Shown here: positions 3,680 through 60,387 of the stretch, piece after piece
Layout of the letters: each line of letters opens with the position of its first letter
Position numbering within the stretch: the first letter of the stretch is position 1
The notes under the pieces: generated by a model
The model's database searches: none
The model's input: the letters and a program-made list of their open reading frames with translations, nothing else
Told to the model about the DNA's origin: nothing
Origin: Brevinematales bacterium
Lineage (GTDB): Bacteria > Spirochaetota > Brevinematia > DTOW01
Direction of reading: 5' to 3'
Assembly: GCA_026415355.1 (NCBI GenBank)
Contig: JAOAHF010000001.1
Location: 74,022 to 138,021 of the forward strand
DNA: 64,000 nt
Position numbers and translations under genes: made by a program

Positions 3680-3698
3680 GTTAAAATGATCCTTGGTG

Positions 3699-6677
3699 TT
3701 ATATTTTCTCTATTATTTCTTCCATTTCTTTTATCATTTTTGAAAATTGTCTTTGTTTTTCTTTCTCATCTTCGATAACTTCTTGAGGAGCTCTTTCTAT
3801 GAAGTCTTTGTTTGATAGTTTTGCTTCAATAGAGGATAGTATTCCTTTTAGTCTATTTATTTCCTTGACTATTCTACTTTTTTCTTTTTCTACTTCCACC
3901 AAACCATTAACTGGTATTAGTACAGAAGTAAATCTACCGACTGCTCCTGCTTCTCCAAAGTTTTTGGTCATTTTCCCTACATCAAGGATATTTCTTGTCT
4001 TTGATAGTTTCTTTACTATGTTAGCAAATATTTCATTAGACATAATAGATTTTACTTTGTTTTCAAACTCTGGTAGGTTAATGCTTATCCTGATATCAAC
4101 TTCTTCAGATGGTTTTATGTTGAGTATACCTCTTATTTGCCTTATGTTGTATACAATTTCTTTTAAGATTTCAAATGTTTCTTCTGCTTGAGCGTTTTCT
4201 AGCTTTGAGTTAGGCTGTGGGTAAGAAGAAACTATAAGATACTCTTTATCTTTTAATTCTTGAGGTATTTCTTTGTATATTCTTTCGGTTATGAATGGCA
4301 TGATAGGATGTAGAAGCTTCAAAAATCCCACAAGGATGTTCAGGAGTACTGAGATAGTTATATCTTTTTTATCTGTTGTTAGCTTTACTTTGGATATTTC
4401 TATGTACCAATCGCAGAAATTATCCCAGAAAAATTCATGGAGTATTGATGCTATATCACTTAATCTGTATTCTTCAAATGCTTTTTTAACTTTTGAGACA
4501 ATTGTGTTGAATAGAGATATTATCCATTTATCAACAGCGTCAAGATCTTGGTTGAGTAGTTCTTCTAGTGAATAGATTTCTTTGATTTGTGATTTTAGAT
4601 TTTCGTAATTTGTTAGTATAAATCTTGAGGCGTTCCATATTTTGTTTGCGAATTTTGAACCTATCTTAAATTTTTCTATGGAGAGTCTTAAGTTTTGTCC
4701 TATTGGTGCGAGAAATACTGAAGTGAATCTAAGTGCATCTGCACCATACTCTTTTATGACGTCGAGAGGATCAATGCCATTACCTAGTGATTTACTCATT
4801 TTCCTTCCTTTTTCATCGAGTACTGCTCCATGTAGGTAAATATCAGTAAATGGTTTTTCTCCGAGAAATACGTATCCGGCCATTATCATCCTGGCAACCC
4901 AGAAAAAAAGTATATCTGCTCCTGTGACTAACACATCTGTTGGATAGTATCTTTCGAGTTCTTTTGTTTTGTTAGGCCACCCAAGTGTGGAAAATGGCCA
5001 TAACCAAGAGGAAAACCATGTATCCAAAACATCTCCATCTCTTTTTAGATTTATGCTACCTGTTTTCTTATCTTTTATTGCAATTGTATATTTTTCACCA
5101 ATTCTTCTTAGAAAACCTTTATTTTTATCTTGAACGTTTTCTTCGAAGTAGGATTTTAATTTAGAAGGATCATCCAGAATAGATAGATCATCATTTAGGG
5201 TAATTTTATCTTTATGAATTTCAAGGTAAACTTCTTTTGTTGTTCTCTTTTTAGGTTTGTTTGCGTCGACTATTGAGTCAGATTTTAGTACTTCAGTGAC
5301 CTCTTCAGGTGTAAATATTTCACTTATTCTAGAAGATATCCAAAGATCAAAGATTATATAAAATATTACAGGATATTTACCTTTGTCATCGAAGTCGTTA
5401 TATTCAAATACGTTTATGTTACCTTCTTCAGAATACCAGACAGGTATTCTATGTCCCCACCATATTTGTCTAGAAATACACCAATCTTTCACATTATAAA
5501 GCCAATTCAAATAGACTTTTTTCCATCTTTCTGGAAAGAATCTTATTTTTCCTTCTTCAGCTGCTTTTATAGCAGGTTCAGCGAGTGGTTTCATTTTAAC
5601 AAACCATTGTTTCGAAACTTTTGGCTCTATTATTGTGTTGCATCTGTAACAGTGACCTACTGAGTGTTTGTAAGGTTCTGTTTTTTCAAGCAATCCTAGT
5701 GTTTCTAAGTCATTCACTATGACTTTTCTAGCTTCAAACCTATCGAGATTTCTGTACTTTTCGGGTACGTTGTCGTTAAGAGTGGCATCATCATTAAATA
5801 TGTTAATAATGGGTAGATTATATTTTTTACCAATTTCAAAGTCATTGGGATCATGTCCTGGTGTTATTTTCAAACATCCGGTTCCAAATTCCATATCAAC
5901 ATATTCATCTGATATTAGAGGTATCTCTCTATTTACAAGTGGTAGAATGACTTTCTTACCTATAAGGTGTTTATATCTTTTATCGTTGGGATTTACTGCT
6001 ATGGCTGTATCTCCAAGCATTGTTTCAGGTCTTGTAGTAGCTACTACTATATATTCTCCATTACTATTTGATATTGGATATCTTATATGCCATAAGTTAC
6101 TTGATTTTTCTTCATATTCAACTTCGTCATCTGCTAGAGCAGTGCTACATCTAGGGCACCAATTAATTATATATTCTCCTCTGTAGACTAATCCCTTCTT
6201 GTAAAGAGAAACAAAAGCTTCTAATACTGCTCTAGAAAGTCCTTCATCCATCGTAAATCTTTCATAATTCCAATCACAGGATGCTCCTATTCTTTTAAGT
6301 TGCTTTATTATAGTAGCTCCGTGTTCTTCTTTCCATTTCCAAACTTCTTTTATGAATTCTTCTCTACCTAAGTCAAATCTTGTTTTTCCTACTTTTGCTA
6401 ATTTTTTCTCTACTACATTTTGTGTTGCTATACCTGCATGATCTGTTCCAGGTACCCATAAAGAGTCGTATCCACACATTCTCTTATACCTTATAAGTAC
6501 ATCTTGAATGGTATTATTAAGGCCGTGTCCCATGTGTAGTACACTTGTTACGTTTGGGGGTGGTATCATTATGCAGAATTTATCACCACTACCTTTTGAG
6601 CTATAAAGCCCTTTTGATAGATATTCTTCTAGAATCTTTTCTTCAAAGCTCTGTGGTATATATGTTTCTTCAAGCAT
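3699..6677 (-). CDS. valS: valine--tRNA ligase
   Basis: Class I aaRS motifs HMGH (PPPNVTSVLHMGHGLNN) and KMSKS (GRKMSKSLGNGIDP), plus LWVPGTDHAGIATQ, WCISRQIWWGHRIP and the C-terminal coiled coil typical of ValS. RBS GAGGGAG. Contains a roughly 100-aa extra insertion between WWGHRIPVWY and DVLDTWFSS. Confidence 0.95.
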   Translation of the reverse strand: MLEETYIPQSFEEKILEEYLSKGLYSSKGSGDKFCIMIPPPNVTSVLHMGHGLNNTIQDVLIRYKRMCGYDSLWVPGTDHAGIATQNVVEKKLAKVGKTRFDLGREEFIKEVWKWKEEHGATIIKQLKRIGASCDWNYERFTMDEGLSRAVLEAFVSLYKKGLVYRGEYIINWCPRCSTALADDEVEYEEKSSNLWHIRYPISNSNGEYIVVATTRPETMLGDTAIAVNPNDKRYKHLIGKKVILPLVNREIPLISDEYVDMEFGTGCLKITPGHDPNDFEIGKKYNLPIINIFNDDATLNDNVPEKYRNLDRFEARKVIVNDLETLGLLEKTEPYKHSVGHCYRCNTIIEPKVSKQWFVKMKPLAEPAIKAAEEGKIRFFPERWKKVYLNWLYNVKDWCISRQIWWGHRIPVWYSEEGNINVFEYNDFDDKGKYPVIFYIIFDLWISSRISEIFTPEEVTEVLKSDSIVDANKPKKRTTKEVYLEIHKDKITLNDDLSILDDPSKLKSYFEENVQDKNKGFLRRIGEKYTIAIKDKKTGSINLKRDGDVLDTWFSSWLWPFSTLGWPNKTKELERYYPTDVLVTGADILFFWVARMIMAGYVFLGEKPFTDIYLHGAVLDEKGRKMSKSLGNGIDPLDVIKEYGADALRFTSVFLAPIGQNLRLSIEKFKIGSKFANKIWNASRFILTNYENLKSQIKEIYSLEELLNQDLDAVDKWIISLFNTIVSKVKKAFEEYRLSDIASILHEFFWDNFCDWYIEISKVKLTTDKKDITISVLLNILVGFLKLLHPIMPFITERIYKEIPQELKDKEYLIVSSYPQPNSKLENAQAEETFEILKEIVYNIRQIRGILNIKPSEEVDIRISINLPEFENKVKSIMSNEIFANIVKKLSKTRNILDVGKMTKNFGEAGAVGRFTSVLIPVNGLVEVEKEKSRIVKEINRLKGILSSIEAKLSNKDFIERAPQEVIEDEKEKQRQFSKMIKEMEEIIEKI

Positions 6678-7816: not shown

Positions 7817-10057
7817 ATGGAAGGTAAGATAACACTACCGCAGTTTGGCCCCGTTGAATGGGGGATACTATTTTTTGTTCTTGCTAGTTCTATTGTTGCT
7901 CTAGTGTATGGATTATTTCTTGTAAGGTATGTTATAAGGGTTAATGTAGATGATAAAAAAATGCTAGAAGTATCTTCTGCTATAGAAGAAGGTGCTATGG
8001 CGTATTTGAGAAGACAGTTCAATACAATGATATGGTTTATCATAGGTTTGATGATTGTTCTATTTTTTGTATATAGCACTGTATATACTGATATTAGATT
8101 ACCTTTGGGTATAGCTATTGCATTTTTGATGGGAGTTTTTGCTTCATATGGTGCTGGTTTTGTTGGGATGTGGCTTTCCGTTAAAGCTAATGTTAGGACT
8201 GCTTATACTGCTTTGACAAAAAGTTTTTCTGACGCTTTAAAAGTTTCTTTTAGGGCTGGAGCAGTTTCTGGAATGTTTACGTTGGGATTTGGCTTATTGG
8301 GTGCTACTATAATCTTTATGGCGTTCAGGGAAGAAGCAATGAAGGTTTTGGTTGGTTTTGGATTTGGTGCTGCACTTGCTGCTCTATTTATGAGGGTAGG
8401 TGGTGGAATTTATACAAAGGCTGCTGATGTTGGAGCAGATCTTGTAGGTAAAGTAGAAAAAGGTATTCCTGAAGATGATCCAAGAAATGCTGCAACTATT
8501 GCTGATAATGTAGGAGATAATGTCGGAGATTGTGCAGGTATGACTGCTGATGTCTTTGAGTCTTATGAAGTTACGTTGGTTGCTGCAATAATACTTGCTG
8601 CAGCAACATTGCTTGATCCTGTGTTTACACAAACTTATGGACAAAATGCTGAAATGTTTGCTCTTAAGCTTATAATGTTTCCACTCATACTTAGAGCAAT
8701 AGGTGTTTTTTCATCAATGGTTGGGGTTTGGAGTGTCAGAATGAAGGAAGATGAGCAAGATCCGATGAGAGGTATAAATAGAGGCTATATAGTGTCATCT
8801 ATACTCTCTATTATAGGTTTTGCTATTGTGATATATTTCTACATAATAGATCCTAATACGGGTCAACCTGATTTTAGATTTCTCATACCACCTTCAATAG
8901 GTATTTTCCTTGCTGTTGTTACGATGTGGTTGACAGATTACTTTACTCATCCTGATAAGAAGCCTGCTACTGAGGTTTCCTATTCTAGTAAAACAGGGCC
9001 TGCTACGGTAATACTGACAGGTATGGGTGTTGGTCTTGAGTCAACTGTTTGGGCTATAGTTGTTATAGCGGGTACTATAGGTGGAGCATTATTGGTATTT
9101 CCAGATAATCTTTCCCTTGCAGCATATAGTATCGCATTGACTGGTTTAGGACTTCTAACAACAACAGGATACATACTTGCCATGGATACTTATGGGCCTA
9201 TAACAGATAATGCTCATGGTATATTTGAGATGTCAGGTGTTAAAGATCAAAAAGCAAGTAAAGTGCTCGATAGAATGGATGCTATTGGTAATACTACAAA
9301 AGCATTAACTAAAGGATTGGCAATTGCTACTGCTGTTATTGCAGCAATATCATTATTTAGGTCTTTTATAGATGAAGCACAACTGTTTTTGAAAGGTATA
9401 CAGATTAATTTACCAGATGTGTTTATAGGTCTTTTGATAGGTGGTGCTGTTCCATTTTTGTTTTCGTCATTTGCTATAAAGGCAGTTGGTAGAGCAGCAT
9501 TTTTGGTTGTCGAAGAAGTCAGAAGACAATTTAGAGAGAAACCAGGTATAATGGAATGGAAGGAAAAACCAGACTACGGTAAGACAGTAGATATTGTTAC
9601 TGCAGCAGCACAGAAAGAATTGATAGGGCCAGGTATACTAGCAATATTTTCACCAATACTAGTTGGGTTTTTACTAGGAGCACAAGCTCTTGGTGGATTT
9701 TTAGCAGGTGCGATATTAACGGGACAATTACTTGCGGTGTTTATGGCTAATTCAGGTGGTGTCTGGGATAATGCTAAGAAAAAGATAGAAGATGGTTTTC
9801 TTGGTGGTAAAGGAACTGATGAACATAAGGCAGCAGTTGTTGGTGATACTGTAGGAGATCCTTTCAAAGATACTGCAGGTCCTTCGCTTAATCCTCTTAT
9901 AAAGGTCATAAATCTTGTTTCACTGCTAATAGCGCCTGTTGTAATACTCGAGCTCTCAGTATGGTTGAAGCTTTCAATTGTAGTTTTTGCGATTATATTG
10001 CTAGGTATTGCAGTGATGTTGAGTAAAAGAGGAGCAATAACTGAAGAGAAGAAGTAG
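7817..10057 (+). CDS. hppA: membrane-bound proton-translocating pyrophosphatase (K+-independent type by GNTTKA motif)
   Basis: 746-aa polytopic protein with the V-PPase signatures GGGIYTKAADVGADLVGKVE, DNVGDNVGDCAGMTADVFESY and AIGNTTKALTKGLA. RBS GACGGAGG. Confidence 0.95.
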   Translation: MEGKITLPQFGPVEWGILFFVLASSIVALVYGLFLVRYVIRVNVDDKKMLEVSSAIEEGAMAYLRRQFNTMIWFIIGLMIVLFFVYSTVYTDIRLPLGIAIAFLMGVFASYGAGFVGMWLSVKANVRTAYTALTKSFSDALKVSFRAGAVSGMFTLGFGLLGATIIFMAFREEAMKVLVGFGFGAALAALFMRVGGGIYTKAADVGADLVGKVEKGIPEDDPRNAATIADNVGDNVGDCAGMTADVFESYEVTLVAAIILAAATLLDPVFTQTYGQNAEMFALKLIMFPLILRAIGVFSSMVGVWSVRMKEDEQDPMRGINRGYIVSSILSIIGFAIVIYFYIIDPNTGQPDFRFLIPPSIGIFLAVVTMWLTDYFTHPDKKPATEVSYSSKTGPATVILTGMGVGLESTVWAIVVIAGTIGGALLVFPDNLSLAAYSIALTGLGLLTTTGYILAMDTYGPITDNAHGIFEMSGVKDQKASKVLDRMDAIGNTTKALTKGLAIATAVIAAISLFRSFIDEAQLFLKGIQINLPDVFIGLLIGGAVPFLFSSFAIKAVGRAAFLVVEEVRRQFREKPGIMEWKEKPDYGKTVDIVTAAAQKELIGPGILAIFSPILVGFLLGAQALGGFLAGAILTGQLLAVFMANSGGVWDNAKKKIEDGFLGGKGTDEHKAAVVGDTVGDPFKDTAGPSLNPLIKVINLVSLLIAPVVILELSVWLKLSIVVFAIILLGIAVMLSKRGAITEEKK

Positions 10058-31803: not shown

Positions 31804-33969
31804 CTAGTATGATTTGAGACGCGGTAGTATTACTGGATAGTCATAAAAGTAACTTTTGAAGTCTTTTGATTTTATGTAAAATAGTTTTGCTCTTTCGGAT
31901 ATTACTTTTATTTCTTTTATTTCATTTTCTGTTCCAAGTAAAACATGATCAGGATCACCAAGAAAATGATACTTTTGGTTTTCTGAAGAGATAGTATAAC
32001 TTCCATAATTATCAACGACCATTACTTCTCCGTCTATTAGTATGTAGACTTTGTTTGTTTTTTTGTTGGTATATATAACGGTATTTTTTTGTACTTCTTC
32101 ATAGTTAAGTATCATTTCAAAGTAAGTTTTCATTGATGGGGTAAAATCTTCAAAATATTTAGTTGAAAATATATTCCAAGTATCTTTCCCTCTTATATGG
32201 GCTAGGTTTAGAAGTTTTTTGTATAATTTTGTTCCTTTTATGTTCTTCAGGAAGCTGTTGCTTTTTACTCTTAATACCTTACATCCATTGTTACCTGCTA
32301 CTATAGTTGCGCTTCTACCTTTTTTTGTTAGTATAGCACTTTCTCCAAAGAAATCGAATACTAAGTATTCTTTGAATAATTTTTCGCCAACAAAAAGATT
32401 TACGTATCCTTCAACAATAATGTAGAAATCTTTATTTTGAGTGTCTCCTTCTTTTATTATTACTTCTCCGGGTTTATAATCTTCAAACTCACTATTGTCT
32501 TCCATATCTTTTATGTTTCTAAGAGGTAAATCTAGGAATAGTTTTACTGAGGATAGCACATCGAACTTGCTTAACCTTTTTTGTGATATTATCACAACAG
32601 AATTCTCAATACCTTGTTTTGGATAGAGTAGAGATGGATTTGGGTTTGCTGAAATGTAATTAAGATAGTCTTTTTCAGAGCAGTGGAATGCGTAAACGTA
32701 TTGATCTTCTCTTGTTTGAAAATTGAGTTTTGATATTTCGGTGTGTATTATACCTCCACCTGCTTCATGTAGTATGTAGTCATAGTTTTTGAACTCATTC
32801 ATAACAAAATTGTATCTTTCTTGGTTTATTATTCCTTCGTCTAGCAGTAGTTTAGTCCTATCCGAAACAAATGTATCTGATGAATAGAATAATGTTTTCC
32901 CTTCAAACTCTACGGTAAAACCAATTGTTGGTATTGAGTGTAGTGTGTAGTGGAATTTGAATACGGCATTCTCAATATTAATTTCTCTGCCAACTTTTAT
33001 TGGTTTGAATTCACATATTTTGTCGAAGAAGTACTCTTTTACATCAAGTAACTTTGAATATTTTCTTTTGAACGATTCCCATATAGTTTTAGTTGTATAG
33101 ATTTTAACCTTGTTACCCCTTAGCATACTTTGAAGTGTTCCTGCATCATGGTCTGCGTGACAATGTGTAAGTATTATCGCTACTATGCTACTTATAGGAA
33201 TGTTATTTCTTTCTACTTCATTAAACGAATGTGCTGGTGGATCTATGAAAATACCCTTACCGTTGATCCATAATATAAATCCTGAGGTAGTTCCGTCGGG
33301 ATCAAACCCATTGCTTGAACCTAGGCAAGTAAATCCAAATCTAGGAAATCTAAAATTGGTTAGTTTTTTGTTGTTTGAAGGAGTTATTTGTATAACTTTG
33401 AGATCATACTTGATACCTGTTAATATTTCATTGCCTAACTTTATATCTAGTTTTTCATTTCCTTTGTAAAAGGAAATGTTGTCACCTTCTTTTCTAACTA
33501 TTATTTCACCTATTGGAATTTCTTTTTGGATATCAATAAATTCAACAGAATCGAATACTTCGAATAGTTCTTCTTTTTTGGTTTGGTCTTTTCTTCTGAA
33601 GAACATCATTTCTGCAGGAATATTACATGTTATTCCACTATGGAAATCATCTTCGTATATATTGTTGGGGCCTATTAGTGACTCTTTGAATAGTATTTCT
33701 AATGATTTTTTCTGATCTTTTGAGCAGATGATATAAGTTTTTCTTCTTCTTACGAAGTAGTTGTAGTATATTGGGAACTCAACTTCACCTACGTTTAGGA
33801 AGGTTGTCCTGTCAATGATGTTTTTAGGAATAATATAGTACTGGGGAGCTTCACCATATAATTTTATTGAATCTTTTATAGTTTCTGGAGGTACTCCAAA
33901 TTGGCATAACATTTTGCCATCTTTTGTTAGTATATATCCACCTCTTGGCAAGGGTATAGCTTCTATCAT
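31804..33969 (-). CDS. multidomain protein: unknown N-domain + metallo-beta-lactamase-fold hydrolase + two cyclic-nucleotide-binding (cNMP) domains
   Basis: MBL motif ILTHCHADHDAGTL (HxHxDH) near residue 265, and later a second metal-ligand region FHCSE. The C-terminal ~280 aa contain two CAP/cNMP-like domains (YKPGEVIIKEGDTQNKDFYIIVEGYVNLF...FGESAILTKKGRSATIVA and VIYTNKKTNKVYILIDGEVMVV...GTENEIKEIKVIS). Last gene of the pilMN-pilO-like string. Confidence 0.8.
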   Translation of the reverse strand: MIEAIPLPRGGYILTKDGKMLCQFGVPPETIKDSIKLYGEAPQYYIIPKNIIDRTTFLNVGEVEFPIYYNYFVRRRKTYIICSKDQKKSLEILFKESLIGPNNIYEDDFHSGITCNIPAEMMFFRRKDQTKKEELFEVFDSVEFIDIQKEIPIGEIIVRKEGDNISFYKGNEKLDIKLGNEILTGIKYDLKVIQITPSNNKKLTNFRFPRFGFTCLGSSNGFDPDGTTSGFILWINGKGIFIDPPAHSFNEVERNNIPISSIVAIILTHCHADHDAGTLQSMLRGNKVKIYTTKTIWESFKRKYSKLLDVKEYFFDKICEFKPIKVGREINIENAVFKFHYTLHSIPTIGFTVEFEGKTLFYSSDTFVSDRTKLLLDEGIINQERYNFVMNEFKNYDYILHEAGGGIIHTEISKLNFQTREDQYVYAFHCSEKDYLNYISANPNPSLLYPKQGIENSVVIISQKRLSKFDVLSSVKLFLDLPLRNIKDMEDNSEFEDYKPGEVIIKEGDTQNKDFYIIVEGYVNLFVGEKLFKEYLVFDFFGESAILTKKGRSATIVAGNNGCKVLRVKSNSFLKNIKGTKLYKKLLNLAHIRGKDTWNIFSTKYFEDFTPSMKTYFEMILNYEEVQKNTVIYTNKKTNKVYILIDGEVMVVDNYGSYTISSENQKYHFLGDPDHVLLGTENEIKEIKVISERAKLFYIKSKDFKSYFYDYPVILPRLKSY

Positions 33970-40831: not shown

Positions 40832-40933
40832 ATACCTGTATTTTAAAAAATACCATGTGTTAAGTAAAAGTTTTACGTAGAGCAATCATTAAAAATTTTT
40901 ACTACAATCCGAAAAAATAAGAGAGGTGGATTT

Positions 40934-46183: not shown

Positions 46184-46342
46184 CTATTCACGTTGTATCC
46201 TTAGCTTTCTATAGTTGATGGGGAAACGATTATCGGTTCAAACTTAGACTTTGCTACTTAAATTACTTGTGAAGTTTTGATTGTATGTGGTTGATTTGAA
46301 TTTTAGAAATTTTTATGAAGTATCCGAAAATTCTAAATAAAT

Positions 46343-47272
46343 ATGTCTAACTTTGTTGATATAACTAATAGAGTTGAAAAAAACCCTAATAAAAGGTATT
46401 CAATAACTGTTGCTTACATAGGTAAGAAAAGTTTATATGCTTTTAAAAATAGGATGGATGATATTATTTCTTTTTTCGGTTCAATCTCAAACATTGAGAT
46501 CATGTATGTTGATACTTCAAAGACTGATATAACTGATGCTGGTGATATTCTTAACAAAGCTAGGATAATAATACCTGATAATGATATATCTATAACTGAG
46601 GCAGTAAATAATGCCATAATGCTTGCAAGTGCTCAACTGGTTTTGGTTATGACTGTTAACTATAGACCTTCTATACTCAATACTAAAAACGTTAGAGATG
46701 TGTTTAGTACTGAACCTACGCTTATGTGTATAACCCCAACATTATCTTACCAAGGTAAACGAGTTACCGAAACAGTTAAGTTAAGTATAATTAATGATAC
46801 TCTTGATGTTGTTATACTTGAAAATGCTAAAAACCCAGCAACTCTTACTCCGAACCATTTTCTAGGAATATACAATAAAAATCTGTTTAAGTCTATAGGT
46901 GGTTATTTGACGAATCTTCCAACATATTTGTCTATGATAGAATTCGGAATAAGGACTTGGAGCAGTGGTGGTATAATAATATCGGCGAAAGATTTTTTGG
47001 TAGATAAGATAGCTGATTTTGATATACCTACAAGTGTACTGCAAAAGGATTATTCTCAACCTACTTTTAGGTATTTCCTTTCAAAGAAACCTCTGTTGAG
47101 GATTGTAGTGGATCTGCTAAAAGTACCATTACAATTTATTTCTCTAAGGTTTAAGGATATTTCTTCTACTTTTGTTGAAATAGCTACGTATTTAAAGAAT
47201 AAAAACTCGCTTTTTATTTTAACTCCTGAGATAGAAAAGATATCCTCAATAATAAGTTATTATGAAGATTAG
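46343..47272 (+). CDS. hypothetical protein, weak glycosyltransferase-2-like N-terminal pattern
   Basis: 309 aa. YSITVAYIGKKS...IEIMYVDTSKTD...ITEAVNNAIMLASAQLVLVMTVNYRP loosely follows the GT-A order (N-terminal beta-strand, DxD-like region), with no clear DxD motif. Confidence 0.4.
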   Translation: MSNFVDITNRVEKNPNKRYSITVAYIGKKSLYAFKNRMDDIISFFGSISNIEIMYVDTSKTDITDAGDILNKARIIIPDNDISITEAVNNAIMLASAQLVLVMTVNYRPSILNTKNVRDVFSTEPTLMCITPTLSYQGKRVTETVKLSIINDTLDVVILENAKNPATLTPNHFLGIYNKNLFKSIGGYLTNLPTYLSMIEFGIRTWSSGGIIISAKDFLVDKIADFDIPTSVLQKDYSQPTFRYFLSKKPLLRIVVDLLKVPLQFISLRFKDISSTFVEIATYLKNKNSLFILTPEIEKISSIISYYED

Positions 47273-51468: not shown

Positions 51469-51592
51469 TAAGTCATTTGATTATTTTATTCTAGTTTGAG
51501 TATAGATGTTTTATCTGTAACTTGGATGTTACAAGTTTGAAAATTCAGTTGCTAATTGTTTACTTTAAAGGCAGCTTGCAAGGAAAATTCTT

Positions 51593-54466
51593 ATGAAAAG
51601 ATTGTATTTCATTGTTATTATTTATTTTGTTTTTTCATTTGATCTCAGAGGACAGGTAAGTTTTTCTACTTTTGATCCTTTAAGATGTTGGACTAAGATA
51701 CAAACTATTTATTTTGATATTTACTTTTCTGAAACTTCTAAAGGTACTGCTCAAAGACTTTCGACGATAGTGGATAAAATATATGAAGAAGTTAGTGAAA
51801 AGATGAATGTTAGGTTTGGTTATAGGTTTCCAATAGTTGTTGTAGATCAAAGTGATTTACCAAATGGATATTATGTTGCTATTCCAAGCCCCTTTATAGT
51901 AATATATACCTCAAAGATAACAAAGTTAGATAATTTTGTCTTTGATGATGATCTAAAAGGTATATTTATACACGAGTTGACACATGCTCTTGCTATCGAA
52001 GAAGCAAACGGGGTTTTTTGGCAATTTCTGAGGTTTATATTTTCGTACTATATAGTGCCAAATATGTATTTACCTGGTGTATTTATAGAGTCTCCTACTG
52101 TTTTGAATGAAAGTATTTGGGGTTATGGGAGACTTAATAATCCGATTTTTACAGATAGTTTGTATTCTCAATCGTATTACGGTAAGTTTAGAAATTTTTA
52201 CAAAGCGAACCTTGTCAATGAATATCCTTTAGATGGGTGGTATTTGTATGGTGGTATGTTTTTTAGATACCTTGTTGAAAAGTATAGTTATGAAAAAACT
52301 TTGAGTTTCTACAAGGAAAACTCCTACTACTTGCCAAATAGTTTCTATCTTTCGTTTTTTAATACGTTTAAAAACAACTTATTTTCTGAATGGGATGAGT
52401 TTGGAAGGTATTTGAGCAATAAAGTAGTAAGTAGGATATATACATCTGAAGTACAGCAACTTTCTTTTGAAGGTGGATATAAAGAAAGATTAAGAAAATT
52501 TGATGATTTTATATTATACTTCCAAAGGGGGGTTAAGGGTGAATTACCATCTCTCAAGTATGTAAGAGTTGATGGTAAAGAAATTGGTTTTTTAGCTTAC
52601 GGTAGGTATTTGAGTAGATTTGATGTAAAAGGTAGTAGAATTGCCTTTTTGGAAACTATTTCTTCCAAGTATTATACAAGAAACTTTTTAAAGTTAGCCA
52701 GAATAATCAAGAAAAGTATTCCTGTGCTGGTTGATGAGATTAGCACGGATATACAAGGAGTTTATGATGTTAGCGTAGTAGATGACAATACTGTAGTAGT
52801 TCTTGTCCAAGATGATGATACTGCTAGGGTTGTTAAGATTAATTTGGAAGTGGATAATGATAAGATTAATTTCAAGACTAATATACTTTTTGAAGGTCAG
52901 GATATTTTCTACAAAAAAGTTTCAACCTATGATAATCTATTGGCTTTAGTGGTTTCAGAAGATGGGCTAGATGTTATAAAAGTCTTTAATTTTGACACTT
53001 TAGAACTGGTATATGAACTCAGAAAATTCAAATTTGTATCAGACATAACAGTGACTAGTAATGGTATATTGTTTTCCGGTTTAAATGGTGATAAGATTGA
53101 TGTTTTTGAAATTAGAGATGGTAAGATATTTAGAGTAGTATCACATCTTTTCAGTTTTTTTAATGTTGTTTCTGATGGTATTAGAATATATGGATTATCA
53201 TTCTCAAGAGAAGGTGTTGACATTTTCTTTGCAGATAAGGAATCATTCAGTCTAGTTGCTGAGGTTAAAAAGAATTCTTTTGATTTATATCCAAAGCTTA
53301 GAGATATTGTTTCTTTCAAAACTAACATAACTAGTATTCAAAATTACAGTTATTTCAATAATATAACGCTTTTTTCTATAATTACATCATTTTTCCCAGA
53401 TGTTCATTTTAATCCTGACTTTTCTTTCAGGAAAGTAGGGCTTTACTTTGGTTTTTATGATGAACCATTGGAGTTTAGAAGTTATTTTATAAGTATTGCT
53501 TGGAATCTTAATTCAAGGACTGTTGATTATGACGTTAGGTTTGTAGATTCTAGTATTCCTTATACTCTTTTCAGTTTTAGAGTTTTTAGAGATCATTTAG
53601 ATACAAACTTTACAATGGTTTCGGGTCTTAGGAGTAGGGGATATCTTTTTGATACATTTACTCTTGATTACTATAGACTTAAGGTTCAAGGGGAATTTGG
53701 TAATACGTATCTTAAAGTCTATCCTTTTGTAGCTTTTTCTTTTCCATCATTTGTTGGTAGAGAAGTTGTAGATATTGTATTTCCAGACTATAGGTTTGAT
53801 GATACAAGTGAGGGAATTGTGTCACCTTACTTTACTTTTGGTATTACTGTAAACACTTTGAGAAGTAGTCTTGGTGCTGTAACTTCAGAGGAAGGATTTT
53901 TGTGTAACTTTAATCTAAAGTTAGCTAATAAGATTTTTGGTTCTGAAGAAAATTCTTTGGTTGCTAGTGCTTTTTTTTCTTACTCTTTTAGAATTTTTGG
54001 TAACAATGTTTTGAAGTTAGGTTTAGGATTGAGGGGTAATTTGTTTTCAAGTTATTCTAATGCGTTTTGTTATGGAGGGTATCTATTTAAGGAATTATTT
54101 CCTGTAGAGGAGGGAGATGTATATAATATAAACTTACCTACTTATGTCGGATTTAGAGAAGATGGAGATTATTTTTTCACATCTCTTGCTAAGGTTTATC
54201 TTAAGTTATTTGAGGTTAACGAAGGTATATGGCCGATTTACATAACTGAGTTTTGGGTTGAGGTAGGTGGCAGGGGTGGTATTTTGTTTCAAAACTTTGG
54301 TGATATAGTTAATAGGTATTTAAGAACCGAACTAACTGTAGGGATATTCTTCAACTTAAACTTCATAGGTTATCTCGATACGAGGACAGGTATTGAGATG
54401 ATTTACAATACACTTGTGAAGGATTATGTGGTTGAATTTGTTTTTGATTTTGTTTTACCTTTCTAG
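51593..54466 (+). CDS. large secreted protein: N-terminal HExxH metallopeptidase-like domain + about 700-aa beta-rich (outer-envelope beta-barrel-like) region ending in Phe
   Basis: Signal peptide MKRLYFIVIIYFVFSFDLRGQ, then IFIHELTHALAIEE (HExxH + downstream Glu). The C-terminal two thirds have alternating aromatic/hydrophobic residues, and the terminal residue is ...VLPF. Confidence 0.6.
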   Translation: MKRLYFIVIIYFVFSFDLRGQVSFSTFDPLRCWTKIQTIYFDIYFSETSKGTAQRLSTIVDKIYEEVSEKMNVRFGYRFPIVVVDQSDLPNGYYVAIPSPFIVIYTSKITKLDNFVFDDDLKGIFIHELTHALAIEEANGVFWQFLRFIFSYYIVPNMYLPGVFIESPTVLNESIWGYGRLNNPIFTDSLYSQSYYGKFRNFYKANLVNEYPLDGWYLYGGMFFRYLVEKYSYEKTLSFYKENSYYLPNSFYLSFFNTFKNNLFSEWDEFGRYLSNKVVSRIYTSEVQQLSFEGGYKERLRKFDDFILYFQRGVKGELPSLKYVRVDGKEIGFLAYGRYLSRFDVKGSRIAFLETISSKYYTRNFLKLARIIKKSIPVLVDEISTDIQGVYDVSVVDDNTVVVLVQDDDTARVVKINLEVDNDKINFKTNILFEGQDIFYKKVSTYDNLLALVVSEDGLDVIKVFNFDTLELVYELRKFKFVSDITVTSNGILFSGLNGDKIDVFEIRDGKIFRVVSHLFSFFNVVSDGIRIYGLSFSREGVDIFFADKESFSLVAEVKKNSFDLYPKLRDIVSFKTNITSIQNYSYFNNITLFSIITSFFPDVHFNPDFSFRKVGLYFGFYDEPLEFRSYFISIAWNLNSRTVDYDVRFVDSSIPYTLFSFRVFRDHLDTNFTMVSGLRSRGYLFDTFTLDYYRLKVQGEFGNTYLKVYPFVAFSFPSFVGREVVDIVFPDYRFDDTSEGIVSPYFTFGITVNTLRSSLGAVTSEEGFLCNFNLKLANKIFGSEENSLVASAFFSYSFRIFGNNVLKLGLGLRGNLFSSYSNAFCYGGYLFKELFPVEEGDVYNINLPTYVGFREDGDYFFTSLAKVYLKLFEVNEGIWPIYITEFWVEVGGRGGILFQNFGDIVNRYLRTELTVGIFFNLNFIGYLDTRTGIEMIYNTLVKDYVVEFVFDFVLPF

Positions 54467-54582
54467 TTCATAATATTTATACATGGTAGTTTTATATTTG
54501 GAAATTTGATTAATTTTATGATATATCTGCCTTTGAGTATTGTAACTCTTGATCCTTTTAGTTTTGAATATTTGTTTTTTAC

Positions 54583-54610
54583 TAAAAGTTTTTAATTATA
54601 TTACGAAAAA
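54583..54610 (+). promoter_or_regulatory. candidate sigma-28 (FliA)-type promoter for flgL
   Basis: cTAAAaGTTT - 11 nt - tACGAAAA, compared with the sigma-28 consensus TAAAGTTT-N11-GCCGATAA. About 65 nt upstream of the flgL start. Confidence 0.35.
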
Positions 54611-54636
54611 TATTTTAGGGTATTTTTATGTATCTT

Positions 54637-54670
54637 CTACCAAGGATGGTAGAGAGCATTAACAAGGAGG
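54637..54670 (+). promoter_or_regulatory. candidate CsrA-binding leader: GGA-in-loop hairpin plus GGA in the Shine-Dalgarno sequence
   Basis: CTACC-AAGGAU-GGTAG stem-loop (54637-54652) closely resembles the CsrA SELEX consensus RUACARGGAUGU. A second site, AACAAGGAGG (54661-54670), overlaps the flgL RBS. Confidence 0.35.
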
Positions 54671-54674
54671 TTTT

Positions 54675-55922
54675 ATGATAGGTAGAGTCACTCAGAATTC
54701 CATATCAAATGAATTTCTTTTCTACTTGAAGGATAGAATGGTTGAAATGAATAAAAGACAAATAGATTTGACAAGTATGAGTAAGATAAGGATGCCTGAA
54801 GATGATCCTGTAGGTACTACTATGTCGATGCAGTTTCAGAGTAGGTTAAGAGAGATAGAAACCTATATAAGGAATATTGAAGAGGGTGAAGCTAGACTTA
54901 ATCTTATGGATTCAAACCTACAGAGTGCTACTGATATATTACATAGAGTTAGGGAACTTACAGTACAAGCGGCAAATGGTACCTACACTAAGGATGATAC
55001 CAAAAAGATGGCTATAGAAGTTGATCAACTGATAAGGGAGCTTGTTAATATTGCTAATGCTTATTACAAGCAGACAAATCTCTATGGGGGTTATAAAACT
55101 GATTTACCTTTTAGAGTTGAATATGGCCTTTCGGAAGAACTTGACTATGAAGTTGTTAAGAAGGTTGTTTATATGGGTGATGATGGAGTTGTGATGAGGC
55201 AAGCTGATACATTTGATTTTGTACAGATAAATTTGAATGGTAATAGACTTTTTGCTTCGGAGAATATGGTTATAAAGTCATCTATACCAGGTACAGGCTT
55301 TATTGCGGATAGAGATATGTCTTTTAAAATAGATGGAGTTGAGGTGAAAGTTTATAAAGGTGATACTCTTGAGGTTATTGTTGAAAAAATAAATAGTCTG
55401 AAAATACCTGTTAAAGCTTACATTGATAACTCAACAGGTAATAATTTCCTTACGCTTGAAAGTACTATACCACACAATATAACTGTTGAAGATGTAGGAG
55501 ATGGCGATGTTATGGAAAGACTTGGAATAGTAAGGAAAGGTGCTCCAGCTACACTTAATTACAATCCAGAAGCTAAAATATATGTGCTTTCTCTGTTTGA
55601 TGTACTGATAAAAATAAGGGACGATATGCTAGCAGGAAGACAACAGAACTTAGGTGGTGAGGATTTATCTCTTATTGATAATGGGCTTGATAATTTTTTG
55701 AGGTATAGGGCTGAAATTGGTGCTAGAGCTGAAAGATTGAAAGTTGTAAACACAAGATTGAATGCAGATATAGTTTATGTAAAAGATATACTAGCCAAAA
55801 CACAAGCTACAGATATTCCTCAAACTGTTGTTGAACTTAGAATGTTAGAATTAACCCATCAAGCAGGTCTACAAGTTGGTGCTAGATTAATGGGGCTTTC
55901 ATTACTGAATTTCCTAAGATAA
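54675..55922 (+). CDS. flgL: flagellar hook-associated protein 3 (hook-filament junction protein)
   Basis: N-terminus GRVTQNSISNEFL...KIRMPEDDPVG...ILHRVRELTVQAANGT matches the FlgL family (MRVTQSM...RPSDDPV...ILQRVRELVVQ). The C-terminus LRMLELTHQAGLQVGARLMGLSLLNFLR is a flagellin-type helix. Confidence 0.85.
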   Translation: MIGRVTQNSISNEFLFYLKDRMVEMNKRQIDLTSMSKIRMPEDDPVGTTMSMQFQSRLREIETYIRNIEEGEARLNLMDSNLQSATDILHRVRELTVQAANGTYTKDDTKKMAIEVDQLIRELVNIANAYYKQTNLYGGYKTDLPFRVEYGLSEELDYEVVKKVVYMGDDGVVMRQADTFDFVQINLNGNRLFASENMVIKSSIPGTGFIADRDMSFKIDGVEVKVYKGDTLEVIVEKINSLKIPVKAYIDNSTGNNFLTLESTIPHNITVEDVGDGDVMERLGIVRKGAPATLNYNPEAKIYVLSLFDVLIKIRDDMLAGRQQNLGGEDLSLIDNGLDNFLRYRAEIGARAERLKVVNTRLNADIVYVKDILAKTQATDIPQTVVELRMLELTHQAGLQVGARLMGLSLLNFLR

Positions 55923-56081: not shown

Positions 56082-56693
56082 TTATGGTTCTATTTTATTT
56101 CTATTCTTTATTGCTCTAGATAAAGTAAGTGTGTCAGAATACTCGATATTACCTCCTAATGGTATACCTTTTGCTAGAGATGTCATTTTTACATTTATAC
56201 CTCTTTTTTGTATAAGTGATGTGATATAAGAAATGGTTGTTTCACCTTCAGAGTCGGGATCAAGAGCGAAAAATACTTCTTCTACTTTGTTTCTAGTAAT
56301 CCTTTCCATTAGTTTATCTATTGATATATCACTAGGACCTATTCCTTCGATAGGAGATATAACCCCTCCTAATACGTGATAAATACCGTTGTAGTGTTCT
56401 GTTTTTTCTATTGCTACTACGTCGTTTGGTTTTTCAACAACGCATATTATTTTCATATCCCTTTCCGGTGATGAACATATCTTGCATGGGTTTGTGTCTG
56501 ATATCATTCCACACTCAGAACATATTTTTATTTCTTTTTTTACTTTTTCGAGAGAGTAGGTGAGTCTATCCAAAAGTTTATCTTTGGACATTAGTATATG
56601 AAATGATATCCTTTCTGCTGTTTTAGGGCCTATTCCTGGTATTTCGCTTAAAATATCAACAAGCTCTTCTATACTTTTGGGTAATATTTCCAT
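56082..56693 (-). CDS. recR: recombination protein RecR
   Basis: HhH region LSEIPGIGPKTAERISFH, a C4 zinc finger CSECGMISDTNPCKIC, and a Toprim domain. Confidence 0.95.
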   Translation of the reverse strand: MEILPKSIEELVDILSEIPGIGPKTAERISFHILMSKDKLLDRLTYSLEKVKKEIKICSECGMISDTNPCKICSSPERDMKIICVVEKPNDVVAIEKTEHYNGIYHVLGGVISPIEGIGPSDISIDKLMERITRNKVEEVFFALDPDSEGETTISYITSLIQKRGINVKMTSLAKGIPLGGNIEYSDTLTLSRAIKNRNKIEP

Positions 56694-57075: not shown

Positions 57076-58212
57076 TTATAGCTCCCTTTCTTGTATTATA
57101 GGCATTTCGTTTGAGTATATAGTTATTCTGTTTCTGCCTGTTTTTTTAGAATTATAAAGTGCGGTATCTGCTTTTATAAATATTTTTCTGAAAAGATCGT
57201 TTTCATTTTGAGCGCTTTCTATGTCTTCTTCAGTTATTTCTGCTATCCCTATACTAGGGGTTAGTTTAATTTTAGTTCTTTCATCCGGCTGGAAAAATTC
57301 TGAATTTAGTCTATCTTTAACTTTAGTACATACACTGTATGCAGATTGAGAGTCTGTTGAAGGGAATGCTGCTATAAATTCATCTCCTCCGTATCTTGCT
57401 ACTATATCCGAATTTCTTTTTATTTCTTGCCTTATAACATTTGCAAAAAATTTTATTGCTTCATCTCCTACGCTATGTCCGTATGTGTCGTTTATGTTTT
57501 TGAAGTGGTCTATGTCCATGACTGCAAGAGAAAGCTTTGTTTTAAATTTAATAACTTTTTTCATTTCATCTACCATTAAGTTTTTGAAGTAGTGAATATT
57601 ATATAGTTCTGTTAATCTATCATGAATAGCACTTTTAAATAGCTGAGCGTTTGTAAATATAGCTGATGCTATATTAGATATTATTGAAAGGCTATTTATA
57701 TCTCCTTCTGAAAAAATACTGTTCTTATTGTCTTCCTTTTTTATAAGTTCTACAACATACTCAACATTATCTTCTACTATTACTGGAACTTGGATTATGC
57801 AACAAGGTATTATTTTCAATATCTTGCCAAGACTAGAATCCTTTGTAGTTTGGTCAAAAGATATTGTGGGTATTTTCCTTTTTAATGTTATATCAAGTAG
57901 TTTACTTTCAAGTGTATTAGGTTGTATTCTTCTTACTAGAGAAGAAAAGTCTTTGTCTATTATTCTATTTCCTTTGTATTGGAATATTTCTGTGAATTCA
58001 TAACTATCTTCTACACTTTCTATCAATCCTCCTGCATCTGAATTTGTGGTCTCTATCATGAATCTTACCATCATGATCTTCAGAATGTTAACTTCCCTTA
58101 GATCAAGTAGCTTGAGAAATTCAGAAAACTCGTTTATTATCTTTACAGATCTATCTATGTTTTTGAATAACGTTTTGTATTTATGCCTTATTTTCTCGCC
58201 GTCTACATACAT
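57076..58212 (-). CDS. diguanylate cyclase (GAF-like sensor + GGDEF domain)
   Basis: RYGGDEFIAAFP (GGDEF active site) and DIDHFKNINDTYGH (metal and substrate-binding region). About 200 aa of N-terminal sensor-like domain. Confidence 0.9.
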   Translation of the reverse strand: MYVDGEKIRHKYKTLFKNIDRSVKIINEFSEFLKLLDLREVNILKIMMVRFMIETTNSDAGGLIESVEDSYEFTEIFQYKGNRIIDKDFSSLVRRIQPNTLESKLLDITLKRKIPTISFDQTTKDSSLGKILKIIPCCIIQVPVIVEDNVEYVVELIKKEDNKNSIFSEGDINSLSIISNIASAIFTNAQLFKSAIHDRLTELYNIHYFKNLMVDEMKKVIKFKTKLSLAVMDIDHFKNINDTYGHSVGDEAIKFFANVIRQEIKRNSDIVARYGGDEFIAAFPSTDSQSAYSVCTKVKDRLNSEFFQPDERTKIKLTPSIGIAEITEEDIESAQNENDLFRKIFIKADTALYNSKKTGRNRITIYSNEMPIIQEREL

Positions 58213-58329: not shown

Positions 58330-60387
58330 ATGGAATATGCTTATTTAATTCTTTTTGTTTTTTTAATTCTCTTTTTTGCTTTTTTAGTTGGAAAATTATC
58401 TGATAAGGTTTCAAGAAAAGATTTTACTTTGTCTAGAATGAATCTTGTTAAGAGATTTATTACTGTTTCTCTTTCTTCTGTTAATGATATTTTAAGTTCA
58501 GGAAGTGTGATTTTATCTAATCAGAGGTTTAATCGTATTTCTGGAAATGTTAGATCTTTGGATGATCTGATGTTAGAGTTTGTTAAACTTTTACAAAAGC
58601 TCTTTGAAGCAAAATTTGTTGTTAGTTTGAAAGTTTCAAAAGAAGGTTTAGTATATCAGGTTTCTACTGATCCTTTCTTTCCTTTTATCTCTGGTATTTC
58701 AAAGCTCAAAGAGATTTTCGAGAGTAGTAAACCATCTGAGATAATTGAAGAAAAAGTGCTAAAGTTATTATCAAAAAGCATGAATAAGCACAGGTTTGTT
58801 ATACCTAGCGATTTATCTATTTTTACTTTGAAGGATGTTGTAGAAGTGTGTAGAGAAATAAAGTCAAATTCTATTCTTCTTGTACCTTTGTATAGAGACG
58901 AGGGAATCTCAAATCTGATTATAGTCTTTACTAATAATTACAACATGTATTATGATTCCCAGATAATGGTTAATATACTGAGTGATTTTTTGTCTTTATT
59001 CTTATTGTATGTTTCTGCCAAGCAATCTTTGAGACATTTTGTTTTAGAGCATGGTCCTGAGAGTAGTGATGTTAGATTGGTGTTTTACGAAGTTTTGTTT
59101 AATACAAGATCAAACGAAGTAATAAGTAAAACTCCGGAGGATGAAAAGTTTTGGGTTTTTTGGAAGTTAGTTAATATAGGTGAACTTAAGGAGGGACTAA
59201 AGTATAATAAGATTTTTACCATAACTAGATTTTCTGAAGTAGAAGAACTTGGTGGGGTATTGTTGGAGATTGTTTCAGAATATATAGATGATAGTAGGAT
59301 AAGAATAAAGATATATGGTGTAGAAAAATCTTTTGTGAACAGAATGGATGAAGTATTTTTAAGAGTTTCAGATTTGATAAATTTGCCTATAGTCATATTT
59401 GAAAAAGTAGGTGGTAGGATAGTTAAGTTGAATAAGAATTTTATTGATACTTTTAGTGAGTATAACAATCTTAATAGTCTTGATGATCTTAAATCAAAAC
59501 TGAAGTATATTTCTGAAGGTAAGGTTATACAGTCTGATGTTGTATATTCTATTGAGCCTTTGTATGTTGAGGAATCAAAGTTTGGTAGTATTTTTTTCTA
59601 TCCAGTACAAATAGTAAACCAAAAAACTGCTATTGATTTACATTATGAAGCAATGAGAATTAGAAAGATAGTTTCTTCCGTTGAGGCTTTTAGTGGTATT
59701 GATAAATTAAGAAATATAAACTTTTACTTTAAGTATCAACCTGCTGACAAAATTTTGGAGGTAGGAGGAGATTTCTTTGTTGCATTAGAGATAGGTAAGA
59801 AAACTTTTGTTGGTGTATTTGATGTTTCAGGACATAATATATCTTCAGCTTTTGTGGCTAGTAATATTAAAAACATAATCGAGAGATCTATTCTAGAAGA
59901 TAGAAATATTCAAAAAACAATTGAGTACATTAATAATTTGATTTACTCCCTTAACCAAGATAATTCGGAAATATATACATACATAACTGGTATATTGTGT
60001 GAAGTAGATGTTGATAGGATGAGAATGAAGATTATATCAGCAGGTCATAGATATGGTGTTATTCTTAAGGAAGATGGAATAGTGACATTTCAAAAGCTGA
60101 TACATATTCATAAGCCTATTGGTATAAAGAAGGATGAGGAGTACCGTCCAGAAGAAATTTATATTAACAGAGGTGACAAGTTCTTTCTCTATACAGATGG
60201 TATAGTAGAACTTGAGGATGTAAAAAAAGGTGAGGTTGATGAGAGTAAAATAATTGACTTGATTGTTTTCTTTAAGAATCTTTCGGTTAAAGATACAATA
60301 CAAGAAATATTTTCGTACATAAGAGCTTTAAAGGAGGTTAGAATTAGAGATGATTTTATAATACTAGGGTTTAGCATCAAAAGTTAG
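58330..60387 (+). CDS. membrane-anchored PP2C-type (SpoIIE/RsbU-family) protein phosphatase with large N-terminal sensor region
   Basis: N-terminal TM LILFVFLILFFAFLV. The C-terminal about 230 aa carry VGGDFFVALEIG...VGVFDVSGHNISSAF (metal-binding DxSGHG-like) and DKFFLYTDGIVE (PP2C/SpoIIE motifs). Confidence 0.8.
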   Translation: MEYAYLILFVFLILFFAFLVGKLSDKVSRKDFTLSRMNLVKRFITVSLSSVNDILSSGSVILSNQRFNRISGNVRSLDDLMLEFVKLLQKLFEAKFVVSLKVSKEGLVYQVSTDPFFPFISGISKLKEIFESSKPSEIIEEKVLKLLSKSMNKHRFVIPSDLSIFTLKDVVEVCREIKSNSILLVPLYRDEGISNLIIVFTNNYNMYYDSQIMVNILSDFLSLFLLYVSAKQSLRHFVLEHGPESSDVRLVFYEVLFNTRSNEVISKTPEDEKFWVFWKLVNIGELKEGLKYNKIFTITRFSEVEELGGVLLEIVSEYIDDSRIRIKIYGVEKSFVNRMDEVFLRVSDLINLPIVIFEKVGGRIVKLNKNFIDTFSEYNNLNSLDDLKSKLKYISEGKVIQSDVVYSIEPLYVEESKFGSIFFYPVQIVNQKTAIDLHYEAMRIRKIVSSVEAFSGIDKLRNINFYFKYQPADKILEVGGDFFVALEIGKKTFVGVFDVSGHNISSAFVASNIKNIIERSILEDRNIQKTIEYINNLIYSLNQDNSEIYTYITGILCEVDVDRMRMKIISAGHRYGVILKEDGIVTFQKLIHIHKPIGIKKDEEYRPEEIYINRGDKFFLYTDGIVELEDVKKGEVDESKIIDLIVFFKNLSVKDTIQEIFSYIRALKEVRIRDDFIILGFSIKS

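Follow-up and report, generated by a model that had tools for sequence, protein, structure and literature searches.

Based on a 64,000-nt stretch of DNA (64 kb, GC 32%; hereafter the window) from the MAG of an uncultured Brevinematales/Brevinematia spirochaete, flgL is best interpreted as a monocistronic, relocated gene with its own sigma-28-type promoter, a stem-loop conserved within its subclade and a strong Shine-Dalgarno (SD) sequence, this being the best-supported reading of the locus. A CsrA operator in the flgL leader is also possible. The combined model, in which a sigma-28-transcribed flgL would carry a CsrA two-site operator, was assigned a probability of about 0.4 from the sequence comparisons described below.

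A stand-alone flgL gene

The flgL gene and its immediate neighbours in the window were as follows.

51593–54466 (+): gene for a 957-aa signal-peptide protein upstream of flgL, with no Pfam or NCBIfam family
54675–55922 (+): flgL, hook-filament junction protein, 415 aa, monocistronic; from profile matches, and stand-alone at all orthologous loci
56082–56693 (−): recR, convergent, downstream of flgL

The product of the ORF at 54675–55922 scored 372 bits against the NCBIfam equivalog NF005187 (cut-off 337) and 241 bits against TIGR02550 (cut-off 127), and also matched the Pfam Flagellin_N/C domains. The ORF is a bona fide FlgL (hook-associated protein 3). Pfam annotation of the whole window revealed no flagellar gene besides flgL, and a tblastn search of its 64 kb for csrA, fliW and fliA was negative. 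The first-pass annotation had placed flgL outside any flgK-flgL-fliW-csrA cluster, and these searches bear this out.

Orthologous loci were obtained from five species-representative MAGs, four metagenome contigs and three homologue look-ups. With the window included, this made ten distinct leaders of flgL. The encoded FlgL proteins are 73–89% identical to the window protein. At every orthologous locus retrieved flgL stood alone and its neighbours varied, so that the neighbourhood is not conserved within the lineage. In one locus, L026, rpoN (sigma-54; 3437–4879) lies directly downstream of flgL, at the place occupied by the convergent recR in the window and in L016. Several signalling genes were also seen near flgL in the window (57076–58212, −; 58330–60387, +; 31804–33969, −), comprising a GGDEF diguanylate cyclase, a SpoIIE-type PP2C phosphatase and a cNMP-binding protein of metallo-beta-lactamase fold. 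No flagellin gene was found at any locus examined.

In Treponema, Leptospira and Brevinema, flgL is part of a flgN-flgK-flgL-fliW-csrA operon. This canonical cluster was recovered from Brevinema andersonii (L001) and from L012, L014, L021, L022-25 and L027, with fliW-csrA directly after flgL in all six other Brevinematia lineages examined. The window gene differs from the operon of these genera in being detached, with its own promoter and the −10 box TACGAAAA. Every placeable match in the CsrA search and the FliW profile search belonged to other lineages with the canonical operon; the loci found in this way had GC contents of 22, 29.5, 45 and 51% and FlgL proteins 32–44% identical to that of the window. 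Within the lineage of the window, tblastn of 214 kb of loci yielded no csrA, fliW or fliA; csrA and fliW are presumed to lie elsewhere in the genome. A sigma factor near flgN in L022 was considered as a candidate FliA and proved to be RpoS/RpoD-like instead.

The sigma-28-type promoter

A sigma-28-like promoter had been proposed upstream of flgL by the first-pass annotation. Its elements are present in the sequence, and their layout is kept in the orthologous leaders and before flgN of relatives.

54583–54591 (+): −35-like element TAAAAGTTT, with TAAA at 54583–54586; from the sequence, the T/A positions being shared by orthologues
54602–54609 (+): −10-like element TACGAAAA, with its CGA core at 54604–54606, 15 nt after TAAA; from the sequence and the orthologous boxes
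54616–54618 (+): predicted transcription start, 7–9 nt past the −10 box; from promoter geometry only

The sequence TAAA-N15-TACGAAAA (54583–54609) matched TAAA-N15-GCCGATAA at 9 of 12 positions with the CGA core intact. The −10 box of the window is imperfect, having A in place of the first C and A in place of T. It is the weakest of the orthologous boxes, which follow the pattern [TC]CCGA[AT]. The flgL leaders of the lineage could not be aligned directly, and they were therefore anchored on the CGA core of the −10-like box. When anchored, the ten otherwise unalignable leaders exhibited a common T-W-N-A-N15-nCCGAw layout, in which one of several −35 variants (TAAA, TTTA, TTGA, TTAA or TTCA) was followed by exactly 15 nt and then nCCGA[AT]. 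Nine orthologous leaders had an invariant T at −19 and an invariant A at −16 from the −10 box, and L026 has both as well.

The full promoter pattern was found in 8 of 9 flgL leaders compared to 2 of 44 other window genes (p 4e-7), and the core CCGAW, defined a priori, in 7 of 9 compared to 3 of 44 (p 2.5e-5). Conservation of the promoter across orthologues is thus far above chance. The count within the window alone is not, with 2 matches to the stricter pattern against 0.69 expected and 8 matches to the degenerate pattern against 5.7 expected. The match in the window itself gave p 0.03 in a local shuffle. Across the orthologues, a plain count of matches to TAAA-N15-GCCGATAA compared with shuffles gave a combined p of 0.07; this measure has little power in AT-rich DNA and was replaced by the test on the G+C-containing core.

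Five of the six canonical operons of the other Brevinematia had a matching box, located some 70 nt before flgN. For Brevinema flgN the match was near-perfect (TAAAGTTT-N11-GCCGATTT), and for flgN of L012, L021, L022 and L027 the pattern was [TACA/TTTA/TTAA/TATA]-N15-[GT]CCGATA[GC]. The flgL pattern of the lineage also agrees with a mapped spirochaete promoter, the sigma-28 promoter of T. denticola flaB2, which has a −35 of TTAA and a −10 of CCGATAA (PMC9481697). With this promoter and the spirochaete operon, the window shares the −35/−10 pattern, the gene family and the presumed regulatory partners.

The alternative in which flgL is not sigma-28-dependent, being transcribed by read-through from the 957-aa protein gene or from a housekeeping sigma factor with the TAAA and CGA elements coincidental, is very unlikely. 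The interval 54466–54583 showed no terminator-like site, and the chance-level count in the window, the combined p of only 0.07 for the simple consensus score and the failure to find fliA in the window or the lineage loci are in keeping with this alternative. It would leave unexplained the nCCGAw element at fixed spacing from T..A in every orthologue examined, despite their AT-rich DNA, as well as the similar box before flgN in relatives. A good sigma-70 match was not seen upstream of the hairpin. Moreover, the upstream genes differ between loci, and in both L016 and L026 the gene upstream of flgL is on the opposite strand, so that flgL there needs its own promoter. Assignment of the flgL promoter to sigma-28 is accordingly regarded as probable and, on the conserved pattern, well supported.

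Further matches to the T..A-N15-nCCGAw pattern were observed in two intergenic positions of the window. One (40889–40913, +) lies before dnaK (40934). The other (46304–46328, +) stops only 12 nt short of the ATG that opens a 309-aa ORF (46343–47272) with no family match, for which the start may be mis-set or the mRNA leaderless. In L007, tandem palindromic arrays occur directly upstream of the flgL promoter, formed by 3.2 copies of the 16-nt unit AGTGCTTAAAGCACTT (9755–9806) and 4.1 copies of the 15-nt unit TCAGGTTTAACCTGT (9874–9934). Such arrays were also seen in L004 and L008, of one subclade, and are lacking in the window. The arrays may bind a regulator or may represent repeat debris.

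The leader hairpin and the SD region

From the predicted start, the flgL leader would be approximately 58 nt long and includes the two elements below.

54635–54654 (+): stem-loop UUCUACCA-AGGA-UGGUAGAG, with the loop AGGA at 54643–54646 and GGA at 54644–54646; from folding, the stem being found also in L016, L026 and L002
54661–54671 (+): SD region AACAAGGAGGU, with AAGGAGG at 54664–54670 and the second GGA at 54666–54668; from the sequence and orthologues

Both the GGA-loop hairpin and the AAGGAGG ribosome-binding site described by the first-pass annotation were recovered. The hairpin consists of an 8-bp stem (seven Watson-Crick pairs and one G-U) closed by the AGGA tetraloop, with a predicted dG of −9.2 kcal/mol (z −2.5) and a loop GGA predicted to be unpaired with P 0.96–1.0. 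The corresponding local hairpins gave z values of −5.1 in L016 and −3.5 in L026, and the whole-leader fold gave z −1.1 to −1.6. The AAGGAGG ends 4 nt before the flgL ATG at 54675, the stem-loop lies about 10 nt upstream of the SD, and the loop GGA and SD GGA are spaced 22 nt apart.

The information carried by these elements differs. In 128 kb (both strands), only 11 distinct perfect hairpins had a stem of 6 bp or more and GGA in a loop of 4–7 nt. Such hairpins are therefore rare, and about 0.005 would be expected in any one 60-nt leader. A GGA overlapping the SD was present in 22 of 45 window genes, and the SD-overlapping GGA of flgL is therefore of little information; the full AGGAGG was present in only 6 of 45. 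Some upstream GGA occurred in 17 of 45 genes. Within the lineage, [AG]CAAGGAGG was kept in 8 of the 10 distinct flgL leaders.

Apart from that of flgL, just one 5′ leader of the window has a GGA-loop hairpin (UGUAAC-UUGGAU-GUUACA; 51516–51533, +). It lies 60 nt before the 957-aa protein gene (51593–54466), whose SD region is GCAAGGAAAA. A 16-codon upstream ORF in the flgL leader, MYLLPRMVESINKEVL (54628–54678, +), has a UGA stop that overlaps the flgL AUG (AUGA). It was rejected as a candidate since L016 and L026 preserve neither the peptide nor its length. In these two leaders an AUG inside the hairpin loop (AUGAC) opens ORFs of 4–6 codons, the peptides again not being conserved. The Rfam family TwoAYGGAY (RF01731) matched 54601–54734 (+) with 22.1 bits against a gathering threshold of 43 (E 0.44 in a 361-nt search). 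This sub-threshold match is driven by the GGA hairpin and was treated as chance.

Conservation of the hairpin among flgL orthologues

The stem of the window hairpin was shared by three orthologous leaders.

L016: UCUACC-AUGAC-GGUAGA; FlgL 89% identical to the window protein
L026: CCUACC-AUGAC-GGUAGG; FlgL 86% identical
L002: UAACC-AAGGU-GGUUA, a shortened stem; FlgL 87% identical

Across the four sequences, two of six pairs were changed on both sides (U-A to C-G and U-A to A-U) and 92% of cells were paired, the covariation not being statistically significant (63 of 500 shuffles). On the basis of these sequences the stem-loop may be considered conserved within the subclade, and the stem appears to be under selection. 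The loops varied (AAGGAU in the window, AUGAC in L016 and L026, and AAGGU in L002), and among the leaders with this stem a loop GGA was found in the window only. As the stem was kept with an AUGAC loop in L016 and L026, it would be selected for something that does not require GGA. Hence the conservation in orthologous leaders holds for the stem, with its compensatory changes, and does not hold for the loop GGA.

Other leaders of the lineage contained hairpins of a different kind. Different stems were found in L006 (UAGAAGG-AGGAG-CCUUCUA) and L018 (UUCU-UAGG-AGAA), giving, with the window, three different stems with GGA in or at the loop. The hairpins of L009 (CAUCUCC-ACGAG-GGAGAUG) and L004 (AAGGAG-UUUC-UUCCUU) were unrelated in sequence, and most other orthologues likewise had some hairpin of unrelated sequence 10–20 nt upstream of the SD. 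The leaders of L016, L002 and L003 had no GGA beyond that of the SD, those of L002 and L003 being only about 25 nt long. The L026 leader has flanking GGAs. A second GGA at −45 to −25 was present in 7 of 10 flgL leaders compared to 10 of 44 other genes (p 0.007), for an interval that was picked post hoc and a set in which the leaders of L004 and L005 do not count as independent.

These results bear on two other explanations of the leader. In the first, the promoter and the SD alone are functional, and the hairpin and its GGA arose by chance in a fast-evolving, AT-rich leader. The leaders are indeed unalignable across the lineage, the whole-leader fold is ordinary (z −1.1 to −1.6), some upstream GGA is found in 17 of 45 genes, and the first-pass annotation had scanned 64 kb from which any coincidence could be picked. 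A chance origin is nonetheless distinctly unlikely, given the unusual local stability in the window, L016 and L026, the survival of an identical 6-bp stem with two compensatory changes despite indel-diverged flanks, and the expectation of about 0.005 GGA-loop hairpins per leader.

In the second, the sigma-28 promoter is real but the stem-loop is independent of CsrA, serving as an mRNA-stabilizing 5′ structure or as the site of another factor, with an accidental AGGA and translation via the strong SD. This has a substantial, if below-even, chance of being correct. Compensatory changes in the stem while the loop varies (AAGGAU, AUGAC, AUGAC, AAGGU), the unrelated hairpins 10–20 nt upstream of the SD in most other orthologues, and the lack of any csrA match across the window and 214 kb of lineage loci all favour such a role. 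Against it, the covariation from four sequences is not significant, the loop and closing pair of the window match the CsrA consensus far better than a random loop, and the second GGA is over-represented among the flgL leaders of the lineage. The conserved CsrA-type hairpin in the flgN leaders of relatives, described below, also speaks against it.

A possible CsrA operator

The CsrA consensus is RUACARGGAUGU, as quoted in PMC8668096. Two parts of the flgL leader resemble it, namely the loop of the window together with the A-U pair that closes it (ACCA-AGGA-UGGU) and the ACAAGGAGGU sequence of the SD region, in which ACAAGGA corresponds to the ACARGGA core. The AGGA loop with an A-U closing pair, together with the SD region ACAAGGAGG, points to the two-site layout of a CsrA operator. 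CsrA can reportedly bridge GGA sites that are approximately 10–63 nt apart, a range that includes the 22-nt spacing seen here. The CsrA control of flgL proposed by the first-pass annotation is matched by a near-consensus two-site layout, but the loop GGA is not kept in the orthologues that share the stem.

Regarding known systems, the B. subtilis hag leader is described as subject to CsrA-FliW partner-switch control and as having a sigma-D promoter (Mukherjee et al. 2011, as cited in PMC9481697). The flgL leader is similar to it in the sigma-28-class promoter, the short leader and the combination of a GGA in a hairpin loop with a GGA over the SD, and the regulated protein is in both cases a late-exported member of the flagellin superfamily. 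The two cases differ in the gene concerned (flgL here, the filament flagellin in hag) and in that the closest orthologues of the window flgL have not retained the loop GGA; for the present genome, both csrA/fliW and CsrA binding are predictions. In C. jejuni, CsrA binds mainly flagellar mRNAs via ANGGA motifs in their 5′ UTRs, with FliW as the antagonist (PMC4894983). The CsrA-FliW regulon of that organism, which includes the flaA leader and other flagellar mRNAs, resembles the present case in having GGA motifs in flagellar 5′ UTRs. However, its own flgL (Cj0887c) was only about 2-fold enriched with CsrA and is not a target (PMC4894983), so that there is no experimental precedent for flgL.

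CsrA-type hairpins in the flgN leaders of relatives

The flgN leaders of L012, L021, L022 and L027 (GC 29–51%), all of which encode CsrA in the flgN operon, contained a conserved GACA-RGGA-UGUC hairpin, in degenerate form GACA-RGGA-(U/A)GU(C/U). The hairpin lies 18–20 nt upstream of CCAAGGAGGG, which reads CCA(A/U)GGAGGG, and was located at the following sites.

L021: 6207–6222
L012: 5485–5500
L027: 6179–6194
L022: 6190–6205

The hairpin was absent from the flgN leader of Brevinema andersonii (L001). Judged by sequence, the operon in which flgL normally resides is indeed headed by a CsrA-type two-site leader, and this suggests that CsrA may control and autoregulate its own operon in these Brevinematia. 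The order of elements is comparable in the flgN and flgL leaders: a sigma-28-type box, about 12–20 nt, an RGGA-loop hairpin closed by an A-U pair, about 18–22 nt, the CCAAGGAGG or ACAAGGAGG sequence, and the AUG. They differ in having no sequence homology, and the flgN-leader covariance model (R1) gave no significant match to any flgL leader. Their likeness is architectural and not homologous. Lineages spanning 29–51% GC share the flgN hairpin motif, whereas the motif of the flgL loop varies even inside a single family. The conserved CsrA-like hairpin of the Brevinematia flgN leaders is a more robust by-product of the analysis than the flgL operator.

Proposed mechanism and implications

Under the combined model, flgL would have left an ancestral flgN-flgK-flgL-fliW-csrA operon and would now be transcribed alone from the sigma-28 (FliA)-type promoter at 54583–54609. 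The resulting leader of approximately 58 nt would present one GGA in the hairpin loop and another over the SD in the CsrA two-site layout. A CsrA dimer could bridge both sites and block ribosome binding, with FliW lifting this repression as soon as the export apparatus becomes competent. CsrA blocks translation in this manner at the leaders of B. subtilis hag, C. jejuni flaA and B. burgdorferi flaB. A more extensive scenario, in which flgL was rewired independently after its escape from the operon by acquiring a sigma-28 promoter anew and a CsrA two-site operator de novo, would place it under a FliW-CsrA export checkpoint like that of flagellin. Taken with the flgN hairpin, it would have CsrA controlling and autoregulating the whole HAP/fliW/csrA module. 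This scenario is considered unlikely.

If CsrA does not bind the flgL leader, the locus is an ordinary sigma-28 promoter followed by a leader hairpin, and even if binding is real, flgL would be a new target inside the well-known CsrA-FliW control of flagellar mRNAs. With CsrA binding, a hook-associated protein would join flagellin under the known FliW-CsrA checkpoint, and flgL would exemplify a gene that regained both its promoter class and a translational operator after leaving its operon. The flgN-leader hairpin, for its part, predicts CsrA autoregulation in the spirochaete relatives.
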